Source: Candidatus Omnitrophota bacterium (GTDB lineage: Bacteria; Omnitrophota; Gorgyraeia; JACQQV01). Taken from it: a stretch of DNA of 28,876 nt. The stretch spans positions 1 through 28,876 of the forward strand of contig JBDRBD010000042.1 of assembly GCA_043823025.1 (NCBI GenBank), given 5' to 3'. The notes under the pieces are model-generated. The model was not told where the DNA came from and made no database searches. It worked only from the letters and a program-made list of their open reading frames with translations. The translations under genes and the position numbers were made by a program. Below are positions 16,218 through 28,876 of this stretch, in pieces (the stretch's first letter is position 1; every line of letters starts with the position of its first letter).

Positions 16218-18181
16218 AGAAAATCGCACTTGTCCTTGCCGTTCTCCTCTGCCTGGCAGGAGATTCCAGTGCCTCGGATCCCCGCCAGGCGCAGCAGGTC
16301 TGGATTTATCTTGGGAAGGTGCCTCGTGAAAAGGGGATTCATCTTCTTTCCCCTCCGGCGGAGCTTTTGGAAAAGAAAGGGAAGCGGTGGTGCCGCCGGA
16401 CAGGCGAAGGCCCTTTGCACAAAATCGCGTTTGACGTGGCGGACTCCTTTTTTGAAGAAGTGCCTCCGAAAGTCGCAATCTCCGTCGAATATTTTGACGG
16501 AGGGAAAGATACTTTTGCCACCGTGGCGCGGACCCTTGAAGGCTACCATCGCGTCGGGCGGATTCTTGAAAAAAAGGACTCCCGGACGTGGAAAACCTAC
16601 ACGGCCTTTCTTTCCTATCCGCAGTTTGGTCCGAGGGAAGACCGCATCACCCAGCCCGACCTTTTCGTCAACAACCGCCGGGACGGCAATGAATATGTAA
16701 GGATGCTGCGGGTGCGCATCCCGTATCTTCATCCTGAGACGGAAAAGCTCGGGAACCTGTTTGGTCCTCAGGAAAACGTTCTCCTTCGCGTCAGGTGTTT
16801 GAAACGGGGCGCGGCGGAGAGTTTTGCCCTTCGCTGGGAGGTCCGGGACTGGCAGGAAGCCGTGGTTCGTTCCGGGGAAAACACTTTTGTCGCCTCGCCC
16901 GGTTTCTCCGTCGCCCAAGAAGTCGCGCTGACGGACCTGCCGTTTGGCGCCTACTGCGCGGTCTTTATCTTGAAGCGGGGAGAGACACCCATTGAAGAAG
17001 CGGTGCTTCATTTCGGCGTTGCGAAGCCTGTGGTGTTAAAAGGAGACCCGCAGGCATCTCCTTTCGGCGTCTGCGCCGAGTTCTTGACCCCCTTCGCCGG
17101 GAAGAAAGCCAGACTCCTGAAGGAATCGGGTCTTGTCTGGGCGCGGCAGGTGATTCGCGGCGAAAAAATCTATGCCGGCGAAAAACCTGATTGGAAGGAA
17201 ACGGATGCGGCGATTCAGGCAGCCCGCCGTGAAGGCATTCATCTTTTGGGAACGCTGCTTGGCGCACCGCATGGCGCCGGAAATCTTAAAACGGATGAAA
17301 GCAGAAATGCTTTTGCACGATATGCCGAGGAAGTCGCCAGACGGTATCCCGCCATTCGGCATTGGGAAATTTGGAATGAGCCGGATACCATCGGTTTCTG
17401 GGGAGATCGCGATTGGAAAAGGTATCTGGCCCTGATGAAGACCGTCTATCCGCGGCTCAAAAAGGTTAACTCCTCCTTGACGATTATGAACGGGGGGCTT
17501 GTCGCCGGGAATTTTTGGTACCTGGGGGAGCTCTATCAGGGCGGGATCAAAGGGTTTTTGGACGCGGTGGCCATTCATCCTTATGCGGCGGAACCGGAAA
17601 CCGGGAAGTCGAATCTTGCAAGAAGAATTCAGAATGCCCTTGGGACCCTTCAGAAACAGGACCCGGCCCGGAAACTATGGATTACCGAACTCGGATGGAC
17701 CACCTCGGTCCCCGAAGGCGCGACCCTGAGGGAACAGGCCTCCATTTTAATCAAAGCGGTGACCGTTGCGCTGTCCTATCCCGAAGTTGAAAAGATTTTT
17801 TGGTTCACGTTTGATGATTTGGGAGAAGACCCGGAGGTCGCCGTACAGAATGCAGGGCTGGTGCGGAAGGACCTGTCGCCCAAGCCCTCTTTGATCGCTT
17901 ATCGGCACCTCGTCCAGCGCCTGAGCGGGAAACGCTGTACCGGGAAAGAAGACCTGGGGAAGGCCATTTCTGCGTATCGCTTTGAAGGCGACAAAGAAAT
18001 CGTCCGGATTCTCTGGGCGCAAAAGCCGAACCAGGAAATTCTATTAGCAGGGAAAGACGCGAAACAATTTTTTGACATGATGGGGAACGCCATTTTACCG
18101 GCGCTCCCGCGCCTTTTGCTGGGTCCGGACCCTGTTTTTATGCTTTCAAGTCCCGACGCGCTTCAAGGCGATCACCAGTGA
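16214..18181 (+). CDS. Secreted clan GH-A glycoside hydrolase (GH39/GH5-like) with N-terminal accessory domains
   Basis: Signal peptide MKKIALVLAVLLCLAGDSSA. Acid/base motif WEIWNEPD (17363-17386), DAVAIHPY, nucleophile motif LWITELGW (ITE at 17681-17689), FWFTF. Confidence 0.85.
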   Translation: MKKIALVLAVLLCLAGDSSASDPRQAQQVWIYLGKVPREKGIHLLSPPAELLEKKGKRWCRRTGEGPLHKIAFDVADSFFEEVPPKVAISVEYFDGGKDTFATVARTLEGYHRVGRILEKKDSRTWKTYTAFLSYPQFGPREDRITQPDLFVNNRRDGNEYVRMLRVRIPYLHPETEKLGNLFGPQENVLLRVRCLKRGAAESFALRWEVRDWQEAVVRSGENTFVASPGFSVAQEVALTDLPFGAYCAVFILKRGETPIEEAVLHFGVAKPVVLKGDPQASPFGVCAEFLTPFAGKKARLLKESGLVWARQVIRGEKIYAGEKPDWKETDAAIQAARREGIHLLGTLLGAPHGAGNLKTDESRNAFARYAEEVARRYPAIRHWEIWNEPDTIGFWGDRDWKRYLALMKTVYPRLKKVNSSLTIMNGGLVAGNFWYLGELYQGGIKGFLDAVAIHPYAAEPETGKSNLARRIQNALGTLQKQDPARKLWITELGWTTSVPEGATLREQASILIKAVTVALSYPEVEKIFWFTFDDLGEDPEVAVQNAGLVRKDLSPKPSLIAYRHLVQRLSGKRCTGKEDLGKAISAYRFEGDKEIVRILWAQKPNQEILLAGKDAKQFFDMMGNAILPALPRLLLGPDPVFMLSSPDALQGDHQ

Positions 18182-18862
18182 AGAGATTCCTGTCCCGGGG
18201 AGGCGAAAGGGGAAGCGTTTGGCGAGGGGAAGCAGGAAAGTTGGCATCCGGTTAGGGAAGATGCTGCCGACGGTGGCGGCATGAAGAACCGTTAGCCCTG
18301 CGGCGCGGGAGAGCGCTTCGAGCCTTTTTTGCGAAAAGCGCCAACTGCCGCGCTCGGACCGGTCCAAAAGACCCAGCAGAAATTGTGCGGGGTGATACCA
18401 GTTTGGTTCGAAGAGGATGACGTAGCGCCGGCTGACCCGCGCAAATTCGCTGACGGCCTGAAGGGGATTTTCCAGATGATGAAGAATTTCCCATCCCATC
18501 AGGCAGTCAAAGGAACCGTCCGCGAAGGGAAGGCGGGAGGCATGCGCCTGGAGAAGGAAAGCCGTTTTTTGGGGACATCCGGACAGCATGGCGAAGGAGC
18601 CGTCCACGCCGACGCAAAACGAACACTTTTCCCGGAGAAAATAGAGTGTGTTGCCGTATCCGCATCCCACATCGAGGACGCTTTGGAGCTCGGACCAGCG
18701 GATAAAACGCTCCACATACGCCAGGCGCTGTTGGACGAAAGCGGCCACAACCGGATGGTCCCACTTGCGTCCGTGGGCATGGCGCTCCCAGTAGCGCTGC
18801 TGGTCGCAATCATGGACGGCTGGAATGGCCCGTTTCCTCCCCGAGGGCAAGACGGCGCACAA
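18146..18862 (-). CDS. Class I SAM-dependent methyltransferase (Methyltransf_11-like); start uncertain
   Basis: SVLDVGCGYG, GVDGSFAML, LPFADGSFD, EILHHL, FEPN. The only upstream in-frame starts are TTG (18862/18850); the coupled ATG at 18813 is out of frame. Confidence 0.82.
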   Translation of the reverse strand: MCAVLPSGRKRAIPAVHDCDQQRYWERHAHGRKWDHPVVAAFVQQRLAYVERFIRWSELQSVLDVGCGYGNTLYFLREKCSFCVGVDGSFAMLSGCPQKTAFLLQAHASRLPFADGSFDCLMGWEILHHLENPLQAVSEFARVSRRYVILFEPNWYHPAQFLLGLLDRSERGSWRFSQKRLEALSRAAGLTVLHAATVGSIFPNRMPTFLLPLAKRFPFRLPGTGISSLVIALKRVGT

Positions 18863-19151
18863 TCTGCGTCATCTGCTGTTCCAGTTTCCGGTTCTGGCTG
18901 TAGAGGTAAAAGAGAATCCGGAGGATGATGAGGAGGGCGGTGTAGAGGATAAAATCCGCTCCTCTTCCGATGCCGAAGAAATGAGCGATCGGATAGGTGA
19001 TGTTGGGAAAAAGTGTGATGACAATAATTCCGACGTGGGAAAGCAGAAGAGACGCGAAGAACCAGAAGGTCATCTGGAATTTCCGGCGCCGGGCGACGGC
19101 GTTCAGAACCGTCAGCGTTGCATAGACAACCACGAGGATCTGGAAAATCAT
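18810..19151 (-). CDS. DUF2304 family membrane protein
   Basis: 113 aa with 3 TMs. FFGIGRGADFILY...FYLYSQNRKLEQQMTQIVRRLAL, directly downstream of a DPM-synthase-like GT2 (the typical DUF2304 context). Confidence 0.9.
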   Translation of the reverse strand: MIFQILVVVYATLTVLNAVARRRKFQMTFWFFASLLLSHVGIIVITLFPNITYPIAHFFGIGRGADFILYTALLIILRILFYLYSQNRKLEQQMTQIVRRLALGEETGHSSRP

Positions 19152-19819
19152 TGGATGAGGCTCCTTTCCAAAAGGGACCAGAGAATCCGGAAAAGATTCC
19201 AGGAGCTCTGGCCTTTTCGAAGACTGTACGGGGTATAACGGATGTGGACCGGAACTTCCCGGTATCGCAGCTTTTCCTTCCGGATGATTTCGAAGATCTC
19301 GGAGGCATGCGCCATCCGGTCCATGGTCAATTGTATTTTCAACGCAGCCTCCCGCGAAAACGCACGCGAGCCGTTATGGGTATCCGTGATGGAGAGACCC
19401 GTGGTGAAACGCGTGAAAAACACGGCGGATGCCAGAAGCATGCGGCGGCAGGCGGGCGGTGGACTTCCTTTTTCCAGGAAACGGGAGCCGAGGACAATAT
19501 CCGCTTCGCCGGCCTGGATGGGCGCGAGCAGTTTTTCGATATCCCGGGGATCATGCTGCCCGTCACCGTCAAAGGTGACGATGATTTCAGCGCCCTTTTG
19601 GAGGGCAAACTGGATACCGGTTTGAAGCGCTGCTCCCTGGCCGCGGTTCACCAGATGCCTGAGGGAAAAAACAGGGAGGTCCTGGATTGTCTCAAGGGAG
19701 TTGTCCGTAGAACCGTCGTCGACGGCAACCACGGTAGGATAGAAACCAAGAAGTTCTGAAATCACCTCCCTGAGGACAGGCCCTTCGTTGAAAATGGGGA
19801 CGACAATGAAAACGGTCAT
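19148..19819 (-). CDS. GT2, polyprenol-phosphate sugar synthase (DPM1-like)
   Basis: VVPIFNE, VDDGSTD, HLVNRGQGAALQTG, VTFDGDGQHDP, IVLGSRF, TDTHNGSRAF, MAHASEI, REVPVHIRY. Confidence 0.93.
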   Translation of the reverse strand: MTVFIVVPIFNEGPVLREVISELLGFYPTVVAVDDGSTDNSLETIQDLPVFSLRHLVNRGQGAALQTGIQFALQKGAEIIVTFDGDGQHDPRDIEKLLAPIQAGEADIVLGSRFLEKGSPPPACRRMLLASAVFFTRFTTGLSITDTHNGSRAFSREAALKIQLTMDRMAHASEIFEIIRKEKLRYREVPVHIRYTPYSLRKGQSSWNLFRILWSLLERSLIQ

Positions 19820-19864: not shown

Positions 19865-21937
19865 ATGAAGGAAAAAATCTTTCTTTTGGTGTGGCTATTG
19901 GGGTGTCTGGTGTTTTTTGCAACACTCGATTCCCAGACACTTCGGTGGGTCTATCCCGCCGTTTCTTTAAAGCCGGTCCTTCTTTTGTGTTTGGGGACGG
20001 GAATCCTTTTTTTGTTTTTCCCAAAAAAGTTTCTGTTGTTACAGCATCCGCTCTTTGTGTTTCCCATCCCGGTTTTGGCCATGACCTTTGTTTTTTTGAT
20101 GAAGTTTCCCCCGGAGCGCTTTTCTTCCATTATTTTTCAGGATGATTTTACCTCTCTTTACGCCGCATCCCTGCGTACGCTTCGGATGATGCGCGAGGGA
20201 ACGCTTTTCGGATGGGATAGCTCCCTCCTCGGCGGTTACCACACGGTCTCCGACTTGAATTTCAATCTCGGGCTTTTTCTCTGGCCCTTTTATCTTTGCT
20301 TCAGCCCCCCGGTCGGATACCACCTTTTTATTTTCTATCTTTACCTCCTTTTTCCGGTGCTCGTCTATTGGCTGGCGCGGCTTCATCATTTTGAAAAGGC
20401 ACAGGCAGCGATCGCCTTCTGGCTCTCCAGTTTTTTTGCGATCAGCTTCTTCCGGAACGTCCTTCTCTGGGGAAATATCGACAATGTCCTCGGGCTGGAT
20501 CTATTCCTCTTGGTTTTGATTTGTCTGAAAAAAAGCGAGAAAAGCCACAGGGCCTTTTTCGCGCTTGCGCTGACAGGGTCACTCCTGGCGTATGCACACC
20601 TCGCTTATTTTGTCTATGCGTTGATTCCCATCCTCTGGTCCGCGTCCCGGCCGCTTCAACCCAAAAGACTTTTCATCTTTTGCCTCGTGGGCGCTACGGT
20701 TTTTCTCGCTGTTTTCCCGTACGCCATTCATTACCTGAAGCATCCCGATTATTTCAATCTCCAGACAAAACGTTTCACGGATGCCCCCGCCGCTTTGGAA
20801 GGGAGGACCGCGCAGTCGTTGAAGCAGTTGTCGTGGTTTGCCAAGGGGAGCCGGTGGTTTACCGCCGGATACGAAGGAGTCCACGGCGGCAATTACGCCG
20901 CCTGTGCTATCCTTTTTGTCCCGGTGCTTCTGTTCTTGTTTTGGCGCGACCCCAAAAGCCGCCTCCTCGTCGGAACGGTCCTTTTCATCCTTCTTTTGCT
21001 TCCGCTCAAAACAGGAATGGGCATCGCGGCCAAGCGCACTTATTTTCTTCTTCCGATCCTTTTGCCGCTTTCGCTGGCTCAGGGACTACGCGTCTTTTCC
21101 AGAAACGGAACTTTGAGCCTTCTCATCGTCGTTCCGAGTCTTTTGTTGGGGACCGTAGGCCTTCCTTCCACAAGTTCCATTTCCCACGTGCCGACCCTGG
21201 CGTCGTTCTTTCCCGGCATTTACCGCCGGCTGGCCGCATGCGACGGACACACCATTCTTTTAGAGACGCAAGCCCTCTGGATCGAAACAGACAAAGGCCA
21301 ACGACCCGAGGCCTTTTCAGGTCCTCATGCCCACCCTGAACTTCTTTTGGCGCTTGAAACCGGAAAACGATTCCTCTCGCACGGAAAGGACGGCTACCCT
21401 TTTTCGGTTTACCGGGAGAATTGCCTCATGTCTGGGATCTGGGCCGGGAAATTTTTGACCGAGTTTCCCGTGACAACGGTCAATGCGTTTCTTGAAAAAT
21501 GGGGCGTGCGTTATGCAGTCGTCTGGAGTTCCGTCGCAAAACGCTTCTTTTCCGGAAACCCCGCCTATTACGAAAGCGTGTTTCGGGAGGGACCGTGGGA
21601 GATCTTTCGCTTCAAGGAGGCGGATCCCGCTTCTTTGGTGCTTCCTCACGGGGAAGGCAGAGTCGATTTTTCTTCTTATACGCACATCACCCTTTCCCTG
21701 AAGGGGGTCCGCCGAGGCGATGAGGCGGTCCTCCGGATGAACTATTTTCCCGATTTTGATGCCGTAAGCGATGGGAAACCCCTTGCGCTTTATTCCAAAG
21801 AAGGCCAGATTGCCTTCAAAATACCCTGCGATGATTTTTGTACCGTTGTGTTGCGTTACCCCCGCTACACGGTCCTTTACCTTTTGGGCCTTTTGGGGCT
21901 TTTGCTTCTTGCAATCCTTGTTTGGAGGGAGACGTGA
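19865..21937 (+). CDS. Multi-pass membrane protein, probable GT-C superfamily (PTPS-related/YfhO-like)
   Basis: FQDDFTSLY acidic loop, GWDSSLLGGYH, many TMs, a large extracytoplasmic domain (LEKWGVRYAVV, RMNYFPDF) and a C-terminal TM. Confidence 0.6.
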   Translation: MKEKIFLLVWLLGCLVFFATLDSQTLRWVYPAVSLKPVLLLCLGTGILFLFFPKKFLLLQHPLFVFPIPVLAMTFVFLMKFPPERFSSIIFQDDFTSLYAASLRTLRMMREGTLFGWDSSLLGGYHTVSDLNFNLGLFLWPFYLCFSPPVGYHLFIFYLYLLFPVLVYWLARLHHFEKAQAAIAFWLSSFFAISFFRNVLLWGNIDNVLGLDLFLLVLICLKKSEKSHRAFFALALTGSLLAYAHLAYFVYALIPILWSASRPLQPKRLFIFCLVGATVFLAVFPYAIHYLKHPDYFNLQTKRFTDAPAALEGRTAQSLKQLSWFAKGSRWFTAGYEGVHGGNYAACAILFVPVLLFLFWRDPKSRLLVGTVLFILLLLPLKTGMGIAAKRTYFLLPILLPLSLAQGLRVFSRNGTLSLLIVVPSLLLGTVGLPSTSSISHVPTLASFFPGIYRRLAACDGHTILLETQALWIETDKGQRPEAFSGPHAHPELLLALETGKRFLSHGKDGYPFSVYRENCLMSGIWAGKFLTEFPVTTVNAFLEKWGVRYAVVWSSVAKRFFSGNPAYYESVFREGPWEIFRFKEADPASLVLPHGEGRVDFSSYTHITLSLKGVRRGDEAVLRMNYFPDFDAVSDGKPLALYSKEGQIAFKIPCDDFCTVVLRYPRYTVLYLLGLLGLLLLAILVWRET

Positions 21938-23209: not shown

Positions 23210-23238
23210 TTGACAAAAGAAAATAAATGCATTATAAT
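23210..23238 (+). promoter_or_regulatory. Perfect-consensus sigma70 promoter
   Basis: TTGACA (23210-23215), 17 nt, TATAAT (23233-23238), with an A-rich spacer. Confidence 0.9.
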
Positions 23239-23266: not shown

Positions 23267-25399
23267 ATGGTTATGAAATTTTTGTTCTTTTTTCTGAGTT
23301 TCTTTTTGGTCCATGGTCCTTTTTGCGAAGGAAGCCAGACTCGCGTCATCATCTTGGGATTTGACGGGGTTGATACGCGCCTTGCGGAAAAGTACATGGA
23401 CCAAGGCCAACTTCCGAATCTTGCGAAGCTTCGCGAATCAGGGACCTATCTTCCCCTGGGAACAACCCTTCCGCCGCAGTCTCCCGTCTCCTGGTCCAGT
23501 TTTGGGACAGGGCAAAATCCCGGAAAAACGCGTATCTTCGATTTTTTGATGCGGATGCCGGGAAGCTATTATCCTGACTTTGCAATGCTCGGCGAAGGAA
23601 AAATTGCTCTTCTCCCGCGATCCTCTCATCGGGTTCTGGCCTCCGCACTTGTAGGTTTGTTCATTTTCGGGATTGTTTTTTTCCTCTTGAGACGGGGAAA
23701 GAAGCGAAAGGCGATTTCTATGAGTCTCGGTGTTTTTTCCTTGTTGGGAACTCTCCTTTTGTTGATGTGGATTCCGAAGGAAATTCCGAAGCCGGTCTTG
23801 CGCCGCGCCGGCGTGCCGTTCTGGCAGCGGGTCTCCCGGCAGGGAATTCCTTCTGTCATGATTCGCATGCCCGTTACTTTTCCCCCCGAGCACATCCCCC
23901 ACGGGAAGCTCCTCTCGGGCCTCGGCGTTCCCGACGTCCGGAAAACTATAGGGACTTTTTCTTTTTACACCGCTGAAGAAACCGGTTCGGCGGATGCGGC
24001 GGATACGGAGATGGGTGGGAAGATTATCCCTGTTCAAATCCACGATGGAAAAATCCGCACTTTTGTCTGGGGACCAAAGAATTTTACGAAAGAGGGGGCG
24101 CCCGATGTTCTCCCGGAACTTAACATCTCTATCGATCAAAAGACCAAGCAATGCACCCTCCAATTTCAGGGTCAATCCCATACACTGAAAGAAAGGGAAT
24201 GGAGCCCCTGGTTCACATTCCGGTTTGACATGAATCCTTTGGTCCATTTGTACGGGATCGGCCGTTTTTATCTGGTTAGCGTTCAGCCGGTCTTTCAGTT
24301 GTACCTTGGCCCCATCAACTTCCATCCGGCAAAAGTCCCCCCCAATTTTTCTCTTTCTTCCCCAAGAGACTATTCGAAGGACCTGGTAAAAGCCGTCGGT
24401 CTTTATAAAACGGTCGGCTGGATGGAGGAAACTTGGGGGCTCAATGAGAGGCGGCTCGATGAAAAGGCCTTTTTGGAAGACCTGTTTGAGACGGAAAAGA
24501 CCGTTCGGGAAATCATGTTTCATGAACTTGCAAAGCCGGACTGGCGGCTTTTTGTCGGCATCTTTGAAGGGACCGACCGGGTGCAGCACATGTTCTGGCG
24601 GACCATTGACCCCAAGCACCCTGCTTATACGGCCGAAGATGCCGCCGCGTATGGCGATGCCATCCTGAGGGTGTACCGGAGGATGGACCAGACCGTCGGA
24701 GAAGTCCTTGAGAAGTTTACCGATGAGGATACAATTTTATTTGTGATTTCAGACCATGGATTTGTCAGTTTCCGGAGGGCTGTCAATCTCAATACCTGGC
24801 TTGTGAAAAAAGGCTATATGACCTTAAAAGACACAGAAGGGGTCAGAGACCGAAATTTAAAGGACCTTTTCGACCGGGGGGAGTTTTGGCCCAATGTGGA
24901 CTGGTCGAAAACAAAGGCCTATGCCATGGGGCTCGCCGGCCTTTATATCAATCTTCGGGGGAGAGAGCCCGAAGGAATCGTTTTTCCGCATGAGTATGAG
25001 GCATTGCGTCGTCAGATCATCAAAGACCTTTTGGCTCTGGAAGATCCGAAAACCGGCATCCGTCCGCTCGTCAACGTCTATCGGCGGGATGAGGTCTATT
25101 CCGGTCCTTACTTCGAAGAAACGCCCGACCTGATCACCGGATTTCAAGCAGGGTATCGGACTTCCTGGCAGACGGCTTTAGGGGGAATCCCCAGAGAGGT
25201 CTTTGAGGATAATAAAAGGAAATGGAGCGGGGACCACTGTTCTTATGATCCTTCGGTTCTCCCCGGAGTATTTTTCTGTAACCGGAAACTTCCTGAAAAG
25301 CAGCTTCACATTATGGACGTTGCGCCGACGGTCCTGGAGATTTTTGATGTGCCGATTCCATCCGAGATGGATGGAACGTCTTTTTGGACGCAGCAGTAA
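23267..25399 (+). CDS. Alkaline phosphatase superfamily protein (type I phosphodiesterase/nucleotide pyrophosphatase-like) with an inserted TM hairpin
   Basis: Start ATG at 23267 or 23273, signal peptide, VIILGFDG, PPQSPVSWSSFGTG (Ser nucleophile), IFDF, TDRVQHMFW, VISDHGF, WSGDH. The metal ligands appear intact. Confidence 0.88.
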   Translation: MVMKFLFFFLSFFLVHGPFCEGSQTRVIILGFDGVDTRLAEKYMDQGQLPNLAKLRESGTYLPLGTTLPPQSPVSWSSFGTGQNPGKTRIFDFLMRMPGSYYPDFAMLGEGKIALLPRSSHRVLASALVGLFIFGIVFFLLRRGKKRKAISMSLGVFSLLGTLLLLMWIPKEIPKPVLRRAGVPFWQRVSRQGIPSVMIRMPVTFPPEHIPHGKLLSGLGVPDVRKTIGTFSFYTAEETGSADAADTEMGGKIIPVQIHDGKIRTFVWGPKNFTKEGAPDVLPELNISIDQKTKQCTLQFQGQSHTLKEREWSPWFTFRFDMNPLVHLYGIGRFYLVSVQPVFQLYLGPINFHPAKVPPNFSLSSPRDYSKDLVKAVGLYKTVGWMEETWGLNERRLDEKAFLEDLFETEKTVREIMFHELAKPDWRLFVGIFEGTDRVQHMFWRTIDPKHPAYTAEDAAAYGDAILRVYRRMDQTVGEVLEKFTDEDTILFVISDHGFVSFRRAVNLNTWLVKKGYMTLKDTEGVRDRNLKDLFDRGEFWPNVDWSKTKAYAMGLAGLYINLRGREPEGIVFPHEYEALRRQIIKDLLALEDPKTGIRPLVNVYRRDEVYSGPYFEETPDLITGFQAGYRTSWQTALGGIPREVFEDNKRKWSGDHCSYDPSVLPGVFFCNRKLPEKQLHIMDVAPTVLEIFDVPIPSEMDGTSFWTQQ

Positions 25400-25457: not shown

Positions 25458-25646
25458 ATGAAGAGACAGGGACTCAGCGAAGCGCTGTTTCTGATGGGAT
25501 TCATCGTTTTTGTGGCAGGCGTCATTTTGAAAATCACCGCGCAGGAGGTGTTTTTGTTTCCCGTCGTGGCGTATTGGCGGTTTTCAATGGGGTGTTTGGC
25601 TCTGTCAATGGCGCTGTCTCTCCTGACAGTCGCTGAAAAAAAGTAA
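25458..25646 (+). CDS. Small (62 aa) two-TM membrane protein of unknown function
   Basis: Strong SD GAGGAGG before the ATG. Two hydrophobic helices (LFLMGFIVFVAGVILKI; YWRFSMGCLALSMALSLL). Fills the intergenic gap in operon orientation. Confidence 0.75.
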   Translation: MKRQGLSEALFLMGFIVFVAGVILKITAQEVFLFPVVAYWRFSMGCLALSMALSLLTVAEKK

Positions 25647-25739: not shown

Positions 25740-26402
25740 GTGAAAGAAGGATGGGGAATTCTTTTCTCTTTTGTCTATGTGGCCTTGGTTTTGAGCGCGG
25801 CCAAACAGGCGGAGGCCCGGGGGTGGATTTCCTCTTATGCGGTGAGGAAGTGGATCCACCTCCTTGTGGGAAGTTGGATTCTTCCGACTTTTTTTCTTTT
25901 TGAACATTGGTACTCGGCGATCCTCCCTCCATTCTGTTTCATCTGGGTGAATCTTTACTTGGAACGAAAACGGTTCTTCTCCTTTGAGGCCAGAGACCAG
26001 GGATTCGGGGCTGTCTATGTCCCCATTTCCTTTGTCCTCCTTCTCACTCTTTTTTGGGAAGATCCCTTTCGAGCCTATGCTTCTATCGGCGCCTTAAGTA
26101 TGGCGTGGGGAGATGCCGCCGCGGCCTTGATCGGGAAAAAATGGGGCCGGCACACGTACACCCTGGGGCGCACACAGAAATCGCTCGAAGGCGCTCTGGC
26201 CATGTGGGGCGGGGCGGCTGCGGGGTGCATTGTCAGCTTTCTTCTTTTCCGGCCGCTTCCGTTTCGGGAACTGGTGATTCAAAGCGCTATTCTTGCGTCA
26301 GTGGCTGCACTCCTTGAATCGTTTGCCGGCCGGGGGCTCGACAATCTCACCGTTCCTTTGGGAAGTGCTTGGGCCGGCGTCCTTCTTTTCGTGAGAATGT
26401 AA
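25740..26402 (+). CDS. CTP-dependent polyprenol/phytol/farnesol (or diacylglycerol) kinase, SEC59/DGK1/VTE5 family
   Basis: GTG after GAGGA. RKWIHLLVG, WGDAAAALIGKKWGRH, KSLEG, LLESFAGRGLDNLTVPL; multi-TM. Confidence 0.88.
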   Translation: MKEGWGILFSFVYVALVLSAAKQAEARGWISSYAVRKWIHLLVGSWILPTFFLFEHWYSAILPPFCFIWVNLYLERKRFFSFEARDQGFGAVYVPISFVLLLTLFWEDPFRAYASIGALSMAWGDAAAALIGKKWGRHTYTLGRTQKSLEGALAMWGGAAAGCIVSFLLFRPLPFRELVIQSAILASVAALLESFAGRGLDNLTVPLGSAWAGVLLFVRM

Positions 26403-26403
26403 C

Positions 26404-27366
26404 ATGCACTTACTTCTCACCGGCGGGACAGGGTATCTGGGCGGGATTCTGGTCAGAACCCTTTCAACAAAATATACGGTGCGGGTTCTGGTCCGGGATC
26501 GGAATCGTGCCGCGCCCCTCCTCCCAAGATCGGCGCATTTAGTCGAAGGCCATCTCCAGGACCGTGATTCCCTTAAAGAAGCATTGAGAGGGTGCGACGC
26601 CGTTTTCCACCTGGCGGCCTTGGTCAAAAGTTGGGTGCCGGACAAATCCCTTTTTGAAAAAACCAATGTCGAAGGATTCCGGAATTTGGCAGAACTCTCA
26701 TGGGAACAGGGAGTCCAGCGGTTTGTGTATACGTCCAGTTTCCTTGCCCTGGGACCGACGGACACCCCCTCGAAAAAAGAAACCTTTCAAAACCCTTATG
26801 TGGCCTCAAAAAGAAAAGCGCTGGAACTCGCCCGTTCCTATCAAAAGGGAGGTTACCCCCTTGTGACCGCCATCCCGACGGTCCTTTACGGGCCGGGGGC
26901 CTTGACGGAAGGGAATCATGTCGCCCAAATGTTGAAGCATCTTCTTTCGGGAAAGTTCCCTGGCTGGATCGACGGAGGGAAGTGGCGCTGGAATTTTGCT
27001 TTTGTCGCCGACGTGGCGGAAGGGGAGCAGCTTGTTTTTGAAAAGGGGAGGCTCGGCAAAGAATATATTTTGGGAGGTGAGACCGTCTCGTTGAAGGATT
27101 TCATGACCCAGGCCGCCGTCGCCGCCGGCTGTCCTGTCCCGAAAAAAGAGATACCCTCGCCTTTACTTCTGGGCTACGCCGCGTTTCAGGAATGGATGGC
27201 CGGCCTTTTCCGCCTCGAACCCTCCCTGACGCGGGGGATCCTCGAGACGTATCGCCACGATTGGGTCTATCCGGACGATATCGCGAGGGCCGAGCTGGGA
27301 TATACCACGACCCCCCTCCGGGAGGCCCTGACAAAAACGGTTCAATGGTTGAAGGGTTCTTTGTGA
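26404..27366 (+). CDS. Extended SDR (NAD-dependent; farnesol dehydrogenase/HpnA/DFR-like)
   Basis: LTGGTGYLG, VFHLAALV, YTSSFLALG, catalytic YVASK, LYGPG, ARAELGY. Confidence 0.9.
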   Translation: MHLLLTGGTGYLGGILVRTLSTKYTVRVLVRDRNRAAPLLPRSAHLVEGHLQDRDSLKEALRGCDAVFHLAALVKSWVPDKSLFEKTNVEGFRNLAELSWEQGVQRFVYTSSFLALGPTDTPSKKETFQNPYVASKRKALELARSYQKGGYPLVTAIPTVLYGPGALTEGNHVAQMLKHLLSGKFPGWIDGGKWRWNFAFVADVAEGEQLVFEKGRLGKEYILGGETVSLKDFMTQAAVAAGCPVPKKEIPSPLLLGYAAFQEWMAGLFRLEPSLTRGILETYRHDWVYPDDIARAELGYTTTPLREALTKTVQWLKGSL

Positions 27367-28061
27367 TGCCGCACGTTGCCGTCGGATTTTTGGTAAATCT
27401 TTTCTTTGCGGGAGCGGCCTTTTGGGCGAAGAGTGTGACGCTTTCGGGGGCCTTTTCCGGCGTCCTTCTCGGCACATGGATCTACGCCTTTTTGGGGTTA
27501 CGCGGATTTTTGGTGGTGGTCGGTTTTTTCATCCTCGGTTCCTTTTTTACCCGCTGGGGCTATGGGGCAAAGAAAAAAGGGGCCTCCGCGGAAAAGCGGG
27601 GAGGACGGAGAAGTTATCGGGAAGCACTGGCGAACTGTCTGGTAGGCGCTTTCTTTGCATCGCTTGCTTTTTTCACGGGTCAGTTTCTCTTTGAACTTGC
27701 ATTTGTCGCTTCGTTTGCGACGGCCCTTGCGGATACGACGGCGACAGAACTCGGTTCCCTCTACGGAAGGAACGCGTTCTTATTCTTTCCGTTGAGAAAA
27801 GTTCCGCCGGGGACGCAGGGGGCCCTTTCCTTGGAGGGCACACTTGCCGGAATTCTCGCCTCCGCCGGCCTTTCGTTTTTAGCGGTCGGACTCGCGTTGA
27901 TTCAGAAGAGGCATATCCCGTTTGTTGTTGGCGGTGCGACGGTCGGATTTTTGGGGGAGAGTTTTTTGGTGCACTTTCCTGTGCTCGGTCATCAACTCAG
28001 GAATTTCCTGAACACACTCTTTGGGGCGCTGATTGCCATGGCACTGGCGTGGATTCTATGA
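27366..28061 (+). CDS. DUF92 (TMEM19/VTE6-like) membrane protein
   Basis: ATG at 27366 in a TGATG overlap. GGRRSYREALANC, ATALADTTATELG, VPPGTQGALSLEGTLAG, LGESFL, RNFLNT. Confidence 0.9.
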   Translation: MPHVAVGFLVNLFFAGAAFWAKSVTLSGAFSGVLLGTWIYAFLGLRGFLVVVGFFILGSFFTRWGYGAKKKGASAEKRGGRRSYREALANCLVGAFFASLAFFTGQFLFELAFVASFATALADTTATELGSLYGRNAFLFFPLRKVPPGTQGALSLEGTLAGILASAGLSFLAVGLALIQKRHIPFVVGGATVGFLGESFLVHFPVLGHQLRNFLNTLFGALIAMALAWIL

Positions 28062-28876
28062 AAGAGACGAAACGATATCTCATCTGGAAGCTGATACGGC
28101 CTTTCACCCTCTTGGCCCCGGCGGTCGGATTTTTCTCCGGCGCTGTCATCGGCTCAAGAGGATTTCCGCCCGCTTATGCGCTTTTAGGAATCGCCTCTGC
28201 CGTTTTCTTGAATGCTGCCTCCAACGTGGTCAACCAGATTTTTGACCTGGAGATCGACCGCCTCAATAAACCCGACCGCATCCTCCCGTCGGGAAAGCTT
28301 TCCGTTCGCCAGGCAACATGGATCGCGGTTGTTTTTTCCATCCTTGCCTTTGCCGCGGCCTACCTTGTTCCGAATAAGCAGTTTTTCGCCATCGTCCTGT
28401 TGGCGGCCTTCATCACCTTTTTCTATTCGAGCCCGCCGCTGCGCGTCAAACGGTGCCCTTTTCTTGCCAACTTCTGGATTGCCATTCCGCGCGGGACATT
28501 GCTTCTCGTAAGCGGATGGGCATCGGTGCGGGATGTCTGGGACGGGGAAATCTGGGTGATCGGCGCACTCTTCGGACTCTTTGTGTTCGGCGCCACCACT
28601 ACCAAGGATTTCAGCGATGTGGAGGGGGACCGGCGGTACGGCTGCCTGACGCTCCCCGCGCTTCTGGGGTTCCGTGGGGCCGCACTTTTCATGGTGCCAT
28701 TTCTTACCCTTTCGTTTCTTGGACTTCCCCTTGCGAGGGAAGCCGGTTTGCTACAGGGACGCCAAGTGTGGCTTTTCCTTTTAGGGGTTTTTCTTTTCTT
28801 GTGGGGTTGTTATATTACATGGCTCATACTTCGGAAGCCCGAGGCGCTTGCGGTTGACAAGAATCATCCTTCCTGG
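28058..28876 (+). CDS. UbiA-superfamily prenyltransferase (DGGGP synthase/homogentisate prenyltransferase-like); partial, runs off the window
   Basis: ATGA overlap. My translation: MKETKRYLIWKLIRPFTLLAP...NVVNQIFDLEIDRLNKPDRILPSG (motif at 28232-28273)...FYSSPPLRVKR...TTKDFSDVEGDRRYGCLTLP (28604-28630)...NHPSW. Not in the supplied ORF track. Confidence 0.92.
   Translation, partial: MKETKRYLIWKLIRPFTLLAPAVGFFSGAVIGSRGFPPAYALLGIASAVFLNAASNVVNQIFDLEIDRLNKPDRILPSGKLSVRQATWIAVVFSILAFAAAYLVPNKQFFAIVLLAAFITFFYSSPPLRVKRCPFLANFWIAIPRGTLLLVSGWASVRDVWDGEIWVIGALFGLFVFGATTTKDFSDVEGDRRYGCLTLPALLGFRGAALFMVPFLTLSFLGLPLAREAGLLQGRQVWLFLLGVFLFLWGCYITWLILRKPEALAVDKNHPSW

Follow-up and report, generated by a model that had tools for sequence, protein, structure and literature searches.

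The window analysed here is one entire contig of 28,876 bp (C42) from an uncultured groundwater Omnitrophota bacterium. The host genome (G000) is metagenome-assembled, comprises 1.39 Mb in 242 contigs and is 77% complete. Its nearest relatives carry the label Candidatus Omnitrophota or Omnitrophica; small parts of the window are present in two groundwater DNA runs only. The 3' end of the window carries four co-oriented genes, encoding a polyprenol kinase homologue, a short-chain dehydrogenase/reductase (SDR), a DUF92 membrane protein and a prenyltransferase of the UbiA superfamily, which probably make up the core of a conserved membrane-lipid module.

25740..26402, + strand: gene 1, VTE5/SEC59/DGK1-family (COG0170-type) polyprenol kinase homologue, 220 aa, GTG start
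26404..27366, + strand: gene 2, extended SDR, HpnA-like, 320 aa
27366..28061, + strand: gene 3, DUF92 / COG1836 (VTE6-type) membrane protein, putative prenyl-phosphate kinase, 231 aa
28058..28876, + strand: gene 4, UbiA-superfamily prenyltransferase of an unclassified subfamily, 273 of about 293 aa in the window

Genes 1 and 2 are separated by a single nucleotide (TAAcATG). At the second junction (GTGATG), the ATG of gene 3 at 27366 shares one base with the TGA of gene 2; a longer open reading frame (ORF) starting at 27192 is in the same frame as gene 3. Genes 3 and 4 overlap by 4 nt (ATGA), the ATG of gene 4 being located at 28058. An earlier note on this DNA had described four co-oriented genes with a 1-nt gap, TGATG and ATGA junctions, and all of these coordinates and junctions were verified. 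The same gene order, with tight junctions, is found in two relatives (L001 and L003, 57-63% identity), indicating that the packing of the genes is not a chance feature of this contig. Gene 4 is truncated by the contig end about 21 codons short of its stop. The remainder, about 21 codons and the stop, is found on the reverse strand of a second contig (C53:11294-11220). The ends of the two contigs (C42, 28865-28876; C53, 11283-11294) overlap by 12 nt, and together they are syntenic with single contigs of relatives. C42 and C53 can thus be joined across the UbiA gene.

Family identity of the four proteins

Searches with phmmer matched the gene 1 product to hundreds of proteins named phytol kinase, SEC59/DGK1/VTE5 or diacylglycerol/polyprenol kinase, with E-values ranging from 1e-15 to 1e-33. 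Cyanobacterial proteins are among the matches; the gene 1 product shares no more than about 30% of its residues with the cyanobacterial kinases. The predicted structure of the protein aligns with diacylglycerol/polyprenol-kinase clusters of a protein atlas with a TM-score of 0.89, and the atlas features agree. An alignment including the cyanobacterial family members revealed a shared, conserved catalytic core, in which R36, K37, H40, W123, G124, D125, A128, G132, G136, G151, E193, D201 and P206 are invariant. The gene 3 product matches PF01940 (DUF92) with 146.1 bits, against a gathering cut-off of 27.5. Profile-profile comparison identified the products of genes 1 and 3 as distant paralogues with a common catalytic core (hhalign probability 95.6%, E 1.2e-8), in agreement with the reported relationship of DUF92 to the cytidylyltransferase/Sec59 fold (PMC5898192). 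The phmmer matches, the atlas structure and PF01940 support the assignments made in the earlier note, which had taken gene 1 for a VTE5-type kinase and gene 3 for a VTE6-type DUF92 protein.

The gene 2 product is an extended SDR (PF01370, 120 bits) in which the TGxxGxxG (TGGTGYLG) and YxxxK (YVASK) motifs are intact. HpnA (TIGR03466) is the best NCBIfam model, with 205.9 bits against a cut-off of 367.65, and the nearest PDB entry is 3wj7 (E 2.7e-48). Sequence searches of the PDB with the kinase, the DUF92 protein and the phosphodiesterase encoded upstream returned no matches.

The gene 4 product belongs to the UbiA family (PF01040, 141.7 bits against a cut-off of 34.2). Both Asp-rich motifs (NQIFDLEID and DFSDVEGD) are intact and are invariant in an alignment of its subfamily. 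The subfamily is well defined, with about 50% identity among members and the invariant motifs NQxxDxxxD, KDxxDxxGD and, near the C terminus, NHxSWxHMY. At least 581 species-representative genomes encode it, and these come from many phyla, including Acidobacteriota (many of them Vicinamibacterales), Eisenbacteria, Omnitrophota, Planctomycetota, Nitrospinota, Fischerbacteria and others. All of the top NCBIfam models score far under their cut-offs. These are PRK12884 (133 bits against 269), ChlG (119 against 313), homogentisate phytyltransferase (HPT; 102 against 226), BchG/ChlG and digeranylgeranylglyceryl phosphate (DGGGP) synthase (95 against 296). Searched against the PDB up to E 10, the subfamily profile retrieved DGGGP synthase (E 4e-34), chlorophyll synthase (E 5.5e-28), AfUbiA, ApUbiA and UBIAD1, and nothing beyond these five proteins. 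DGGGP synthase and chlorophyll synthase both use C20 diphosphates.

Two further functions were considered for this UbiA protein. The 25 best NCBIfam families for gene 4 do not include decaprenylphosphoryl-5-phosphoribose (DPPR) synthase, and the PDB profile search retrieved no such chain at E <= 10; neither result supports a DPPR-synthase-like function. Geranylgeranylglyceryl phosphate (GGGP) synthase of the PcrB family (PF01884) was not found above cut-off in the five genomes searched (G000, which is 77% complete, G001, G002, G013 and G025). A straightforward archaeal-lipid role would therefore lack its substrate, and an archaeal-type DGGGP synthase function is unlikely.

Conservation of the core and its probable role in prenyl diphosphate supply

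The 80 best loci of the UbiA subfamily were annotated with profiles built in this analysis, and 55 of them had enough flanking sequence. DUF92 is encoded just upstream of UbiA, on the same strand, at 39 of the 55 loci, and both the kinase and DUF92 accompany UbiA at 28. Other partners are less frequent. An HpnA-like SDR is found near UbiA at 9 loci, a phosphodiesterase or metallophosphoesterase at 7 and a 246-aa membrane protein at 6. Kinase, DUF92 and UbiA are thus conserved together across phyla. The earlier note had included the SDR in its four-gene proposal and had treated a lack of co-conservation as fatal to it; the three-gene association holds, but the SDR accompanies UbiA at only about 9 of 55 loci.

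In most lineages, the kinase and DUF92 are not separate genes. At 33 of 36 loci, a single open frame spans both, which is confirmed by called fusion proteins with lengths of 443 and 439 aa. The split arrangement of the window, with an SDR gene between the two, is the minority arrangement. In relatives L001 and L003, the order is PMT_2, phosphodiesterase, small protein, kinase, SDR, DUF92, UbiA, 246-aa protein and phosphoglycosyl transferase. The kinase, SDR, DUF92 and UbiA genes are also kept in a genome from a second family of the same class. In one Acidobacteriota contig (L097, the source of the 439-aa fusion protein), a phosphodiesterase-SDR-kinase::DUF92-UbiA operon stands alone amid unrelated genes.

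An LptD-like gene lies upstream of UbiA at 24 of the 55 loci, all of them from Acidobacteriota. At these 24 of 34 Acidobacteriota loci, the gene encodes an LptD_2-type outer-membrane protein and is located directly 5' of DUF92/kinase-UbiA (for instance at L041:4932-7190; see also L013 and L014). The adjacency hints at an outer-membrane destination of the product, or may merely be inherited synteny.

Five loci lack the kinases and instead carry a short-chain prenyl-diphosphate synthase gene immediately upstream of UbiA. These synthases score 266-290 bits with the NCBIfam FPPsyn model (cut-off 275), with a CrtE-type geranylgeranyl diphosphate (GGPP) synthase as the second match. DUF92 was not found in any of the five genomes in which UbiA is adjacent to a synthase. 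It is encoded elsewhere in all five tested genomes whose UbiA lacks both neighbours, mostly in open frames of 441-602 aa. DUF92 is otherwise rare, as it occurs in 5 of 41 genomes of the class to which the window belongs and in 1 of 10 bacterial control genomes. The kinase pair and a short-chain prenyl-diphosphate synthase are thus alternative suppliers of this UbiA, an alternation that would be expected if the product of the kinase pair is a C15-C20 prenyl diphosphate. The fusions (33 of 36) and the complementarity with the synthase lend indirect support to the view that DUF92 may act as a prenyl-phosphate kinase.

A variant module was observed at loci L018, L020, L024, L028 and L033 (for instance, L024:2019-9904). 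It comprises, in this order, the short-chain synthase, UbiA and a "variant radical SAM" (S-adenosylmethionine) protein (NF045502, 224 bits), and the genomes that carry it yielded no DUF92. The variant loci continue with up to three B12-binding radical SAM enzymes (BchE/HpnJ/HpnR-like) and with sulfatase/phosphodiesterase genes, and look like a tailored isoprenoid-lipid cluster. The presence of radical SAM genes in some synthase-type loci suggests that the isoprenoid chain of the product is further tailored in those lineages.

The host and its relatives encode IspG, a marker of the methylerythritol phosphate pathway, two polyprenyl synthases and UppS. A salvage route is therefore not forced by auxotrophy, and isoprenoid auxotrophy was rejected as its reason. 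The scavenging of isoprenoid alcohols or aldehydes, proposed earlier as the rationale of the operon, is likewise not needed for supply. The prenol could come either from outside or from turnover, or the kinases could close a cycle of release and recharging.

Neighbouring genes in the window and on the adjoining contig

The four genes are flanked by the following features.

23210..23238, + strand: promoter-like site, TTGACA-17-TATAAT, sigma-70-like, 12/12 matches, just 5' of the phosphodiesterase gene
23267..25399, + strand: alkaline-phosphatase-superfamily phosphodiesterase (PF01663), about 710 aa
25400..25432, + strand: RNA hairpin directly 3' of the phosphodiesterase stop, -21.5 kcal/mol, z -5.85
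25458..25646, + strand: hydrophobic membrane protein, 62 aa, no family match, position kept in L001 and L003
C53 10510-11097, - strand: pilin-like ORF with N-terminal methylation motif GFTLIELV, between UbiA and the 246-aa protein
C53 9767-10507, - strand: 246-aa polytopic membrane protein, no Pfam family

The promoter-like site at 23210 is the likely start of the transcription unit. The hairpin is very stable but has no U tract and is thus not a canonical terminator. The start of the phosphodiesterase was placed by alignment to its L001 homologue. The protein starts with a signal peptide and contains an inserted membrane hairpin of two helices, and its metal-binding and nucleophile motifs (GFDG, SPVSW..GTG, DHG and GDH) look intact by eye. 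Phosphodiesterase genes also adjoin this UbiA subfamily in other phyla. The unit is larger than the four genes originally proposed and also includes the phosphodiesterase, with its own consensus promoter, and the 62-aa and 246-aa membrane proteins.

The 246-aa protein belongs to a family of 333 clusters at 50% identity, in which W69 and D225 are invariant. Its AlphaFold model, built from a 65-sequence alignment, is very confident (predicted local distance difference test, 97.7; predicted TM-score, 0.93). A Foldseek search of the PDB with this model found no neighbour (best E 0.25, TM-score 0.18). The gene can be unlinked from UbiA, as it is located on a separate contig in a Nitrospinota assembly that carries UbiA. 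An apparent UbiA::246-aa fusion was withdrawn, since the two matches lie in different frames of a high-GC locus.

On C53, the downstream order is the pilin-like gene, the 246-aa protein gene, a Bac_transf phosphoglycosyl transferase gene, and genes for a tetratricopeptide repeat protein, a 337-aa protein, a ROK protein and a GH94 protein. The 337-aa protein (C53:7774-6764) was considered as a relative of the UbiA-adjacent radical SAM proteins; it is unrelated to them, has no family and probably belongs to the ROK/GH94 sugar genes. The pilin-like ORF is missing in L001 and L003. Pseudopilin-like genes (N_methyl/T2SSG) were observed right after the UbiA subfamily gene at three unrelated loci (L016:8155-8748, L045:6689-7318 and L064:9048-9635).

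Upstream of the unit, the window is occupied by a glycan-assembly locus, which encodes a Wza-like exporter, a Wzc-like chain-length regulator, a flippase, three GT2 and one GT1 glycosyltransferases, a Wzy-like ligase, a sulfatase and two PMT_2 GT-C transferases. This setting, with GT-C transferases upstream and a phosphoglycosyl transferase downstream of the unit, had been overlooked previously. The earlier statement that photosynthesis, tocopherol and quinone genes are missing from the vicinity was confirmed.

Two further features of the locus were recorded. A 690-aa protein (19865-21937) that matches no Pfam family and contains some 12 hydrophobic segments or more is encoded directly 5' of a PMT_2 GT-C gene, and L001 has a counterpart in the same place (60% identity). 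The protein may represent a membrane enzyme of GT-C-like or polymerase type that has so far escaped recognition. Between a glycosyl-hydrolase-like gene and the 690-aa gene, a segment of about 1.7 kb (18146-19819) contains only mutually overlapping ORFs on both strands. Three of these, 18329-18928 (+), 18499-19308 (-) and 19118-19759 (+), have no Pfam match; the fourth is 19148-19819 (-).

Interpretation and comparison with known systems

In the explanation that we consider probable, a conserved membrane-lipid module is built around the four genes, and in it a kinase pair yields a prenyl diphosphate for a dedicated UbiA prenyltransferase. The gene 1 product, a VTE5/SEC59-type and presumably CTP-dependent kinase, would phosphorylate a free short-chain isoprenoid alcohol of about C15-C20, and the VTE6-type DUF92 protein would add the second phosphate. 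The UbiA enzyme would use the resulting prenyl diphosphate to prenylate an acceptor, yielding what is probably a cell-envelope lipid. The periplasmic phosphodiesterase may then process a phosphate-bearing head group. It would be a further member of the module, along with the 62-aa membrane protein and the 246-aa polytopic membrane protein. The recurrence of a phosphoesterase partner hints that the acceptor or the product bears a phosphate. The SDR would be an accessory component of some lineages only, which may interconvert prenal and prenol or modify the acceptor; that it carries out a prenal-to-prenol step is a conjecture.

This explanation builds on direct observations, namely the families to which the proteins belong, their intact motifs, the order and co-conservation of the genes, the fusions of kinase and DUF92, and the complementarity of these genes with a prenyl-diphosphate synthase. 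The kinase-kinase-prenyltransferase core is real and conserved, and most likely serves as a unit for the supply and transfer of prenyl diphosphate. This part of the earlier interpretation is supported, but its scavenging rationale is not. A bolder extension, which we regard as doubtful, is that a widespread and undescribed bacterial pathway exists in Acidobacteriota, Omnitrophota, Eisenbacteria, Planctomycetota, Nitrospinota and other phyla. In that pathway, the kinase pair or the short-chain synthase would feed the new UbiA subfamily to make a new class of prenylated envelope lipids, the kinases would recycle prenol released in the periplasm, and the 246-aa protein and the phosphodiesterase would be dedicated parts.

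Several points weigh against the proposed explanation. The gene 1 product has no Pfam (PF01148) or NCBIfam match at E <= 0.01, and the gene 3 product scores 152 bits with TIGR00297, under the cut-off of 205.85, and so does not reach equivalog level. Of the 55 loci counted, 34 come from Acidobacteriota and are related, so that the counts are not independent and independence is overstated. The genomes are metagenome-assembled and of unknown completeness; failure to find DUF92 in those with a synthase-adjacent UbiA is thus no proof of its absence. The host makes its own isoprenoids and has no evident need for a route from prenol to prenyl diphosphate. The substrates, the chain length, the nucleotide donor and the acceptor are inferred, as are the functions given to the SDR, to the phosphodiesterase and to the 246-aa protein. 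The position of the genes amid a glycan locus, with GT-C and phosphoglycosyl transferases, and the link of archaeal DUF92 to uppS (PMC5898192) would fit a carrier-lipid role as well.

A carrier-lipid role with a DPPR-like UbiA is the main rival. The SEC59-type kinase, with or without DUF92, would phosphorylate a C55-like polyprenol for the phosphoglycosyl transferase and GT-C enzymes of the surrounding glycan locus, and UbiA would make a polyprenyl-phosphate-sugar donor, as mycobacterial DPPR synthase does, with the phosphodiesterase as the phosphatase and the SDR as the epimerase. Besides the archaeal link to uppS, this view is favoured by the genes on either side, two for PMT_2 GT-C transferases and one for a Bac_transf phosphoglycosyl transferase, by PMT_2 neighbours at other loci, by the membership of dolichol kinase in the SEC59 family and by the recurrence of a phosphodiesterase or metallophosphoesterase beside UbiA. 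However, the module is also found away from glycan genes, as on L097, and beside lptD at 24 Acidobacteriota loci. The enzyme that replaces the kinases is a short-chain trans-prenyl synthase of the farnesyl diphosphate/GGPP type rather than a cis-prenyltransferase, DUF92 is left without a role, and UbiA is most similar to DGGGP synthase, ChlG and HPT, with DPPR synthase missing from both searches reported above. We therefore judge a carrier-lipid role unlikely.

A different use of the same enzymes would account for a prenol-to-prenyl-diphosphate route tied to one prenyltransferase despite de novo isoprenoid synthesis. UbiA would prenylate a hydrophilic, phosphate-bearing cargo at the inner membrane face, the 246-aa protein would translocate it, the phosphodiesterase would free it, and the prenol, perhaps via prenal handled by the SDR, would be recharged by the kinases. 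The signal peptide and membrane tether of the phosphodiesterase are consistent with this scheme, as is the polytopic, confidently modelled 246-aa partner of unknown fold. The scheme is wholly inferential, and no recycling would be expected in lineages where a synthase replaces the kinases. Moreover, the 246-aa protein adjoins UbiA at just 6 of 55 loci and no cargo pathway is encoded nearby; we hold the scheme to be quite improbable. The affinities of UbiA raise another alternative, an archaeal-type ether lipid, in which the enzyme would act as a bacterial DGGGP synthase and attach the second geranylgeranyl chain to GGGP. Among solved structures, DGGGP synthase comes closest (E 4e-34), its models are among the top NCBIfam matches, and the B12-binding radical SAM enzymes of the variant loci are of the kind that tailors isoprenoid lipids. 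Nevertheless, PcrB-family GGGP synthase was not found above cut-off in the five genomes searched, the DGGGP synthase models score 88-95 bits, far under cut-offs of 296-353, and the C-terminal NHxSWxHMY motif is specific to the subfamily, which makes this alternative very unlikely indeed.

In hundreds of bacterial species that are not photosynthetic, the module links the VTE5- and VTE6-type families to a single uncharacterised prenyltransferase. Its carriers include abundant soil Acidobacteriota, in which the module is often located beside lptD. If true, the proposed function would imply a new bacterial lipid and offer a biochemical system in which the activation of farnesol or geranylgeraniol could be tested. 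It would also provide the first functional hypotheses for the UbiA subfamily, for a phosphodiesterase family of about 700 aa and for a 246-aa membrane protein family that lacks a solved relative.

In plants and cyanobacteria, phytol is salvaged by VTE5 (phytol kinase)/FOLK and VTE6 (phytyl-phosphate kinase, COG1836/DUF92), which feed the UbiA-family enzymes HPT and ChlG. In the module described here, the same two families would act serially to provide prenyl diphosphate to a UbiA-family transferase, and the catalytic-core residues of the kinase are common to its cyanobacterial homologues. The module differs from phytol salvage in its Omnitrophota host, which is non-photosynthetic and lacks genes for chlorophyll, tocopherol or quinones in the vicinity, and in its organisation as a single operon, with fused genes in the majority of other lineages. 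Moreover, its UbiA protein lies outside the known subfamilies, and a phosphodiesterase, an SDR and a 246-aa membrane protein are present in addition.

Fusions of Sec59-like and DUF92 domains are known from archaea (arCOG02245, e.g. Mbar_A3310; Makarova et al. 2015, PMC5898192). They combine the same two domains and have likewise been assigned a putative role as kinases of isoprenoid metabolism. Their conserved neighbour is uppS, whereas the window features a UbiA neighbour and separate genes with an SDR gene in between. COG1836 has also been tied to phytol-phosphate metabolism by plant-prokaryote comparative genomics (PMC3223725). The literature search found no description of a bacterial kinase-DUF92-UbiA module, but the link between kinase and DUF92 was already known (PMC5898192, PMC3223725). 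What is new here is the complementarity of synthase and DUF92 at UbiA loci, which points to the supply of prenyl diphosphate.

The nearest solved relatives of gene 4, DGGGP synthase (PDB 6m31) and chlorophyll synthase (PDB 9sau), share the NxxxDxxxD and DxxDxxGD motifs with it. The gene 4 product differs from both in scoring below all family cut-offs and in having a C-terminal motif of its own, and neither a GGGP synthase nor a chlorophyll pathway was found. In the mycobacterial DPPR route, the UbiA-type Rv3806c, a phosphatase and the DprE1/DprE2 epimerase provide the donor for GT-C arabinosyltransferases. The likeness is that a single envelope pathway brings together GT-C transferases with a phosphoesterase, an SDR and an enzyme of the UbiA family. 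However, the UbiA protein described here has no close relationship to DPPR synthase, DprE1 was not encountered at the loci examined, and both the kinase pair and the short-chain synthase that replaces it point to a prenyl-diphosphate donor.

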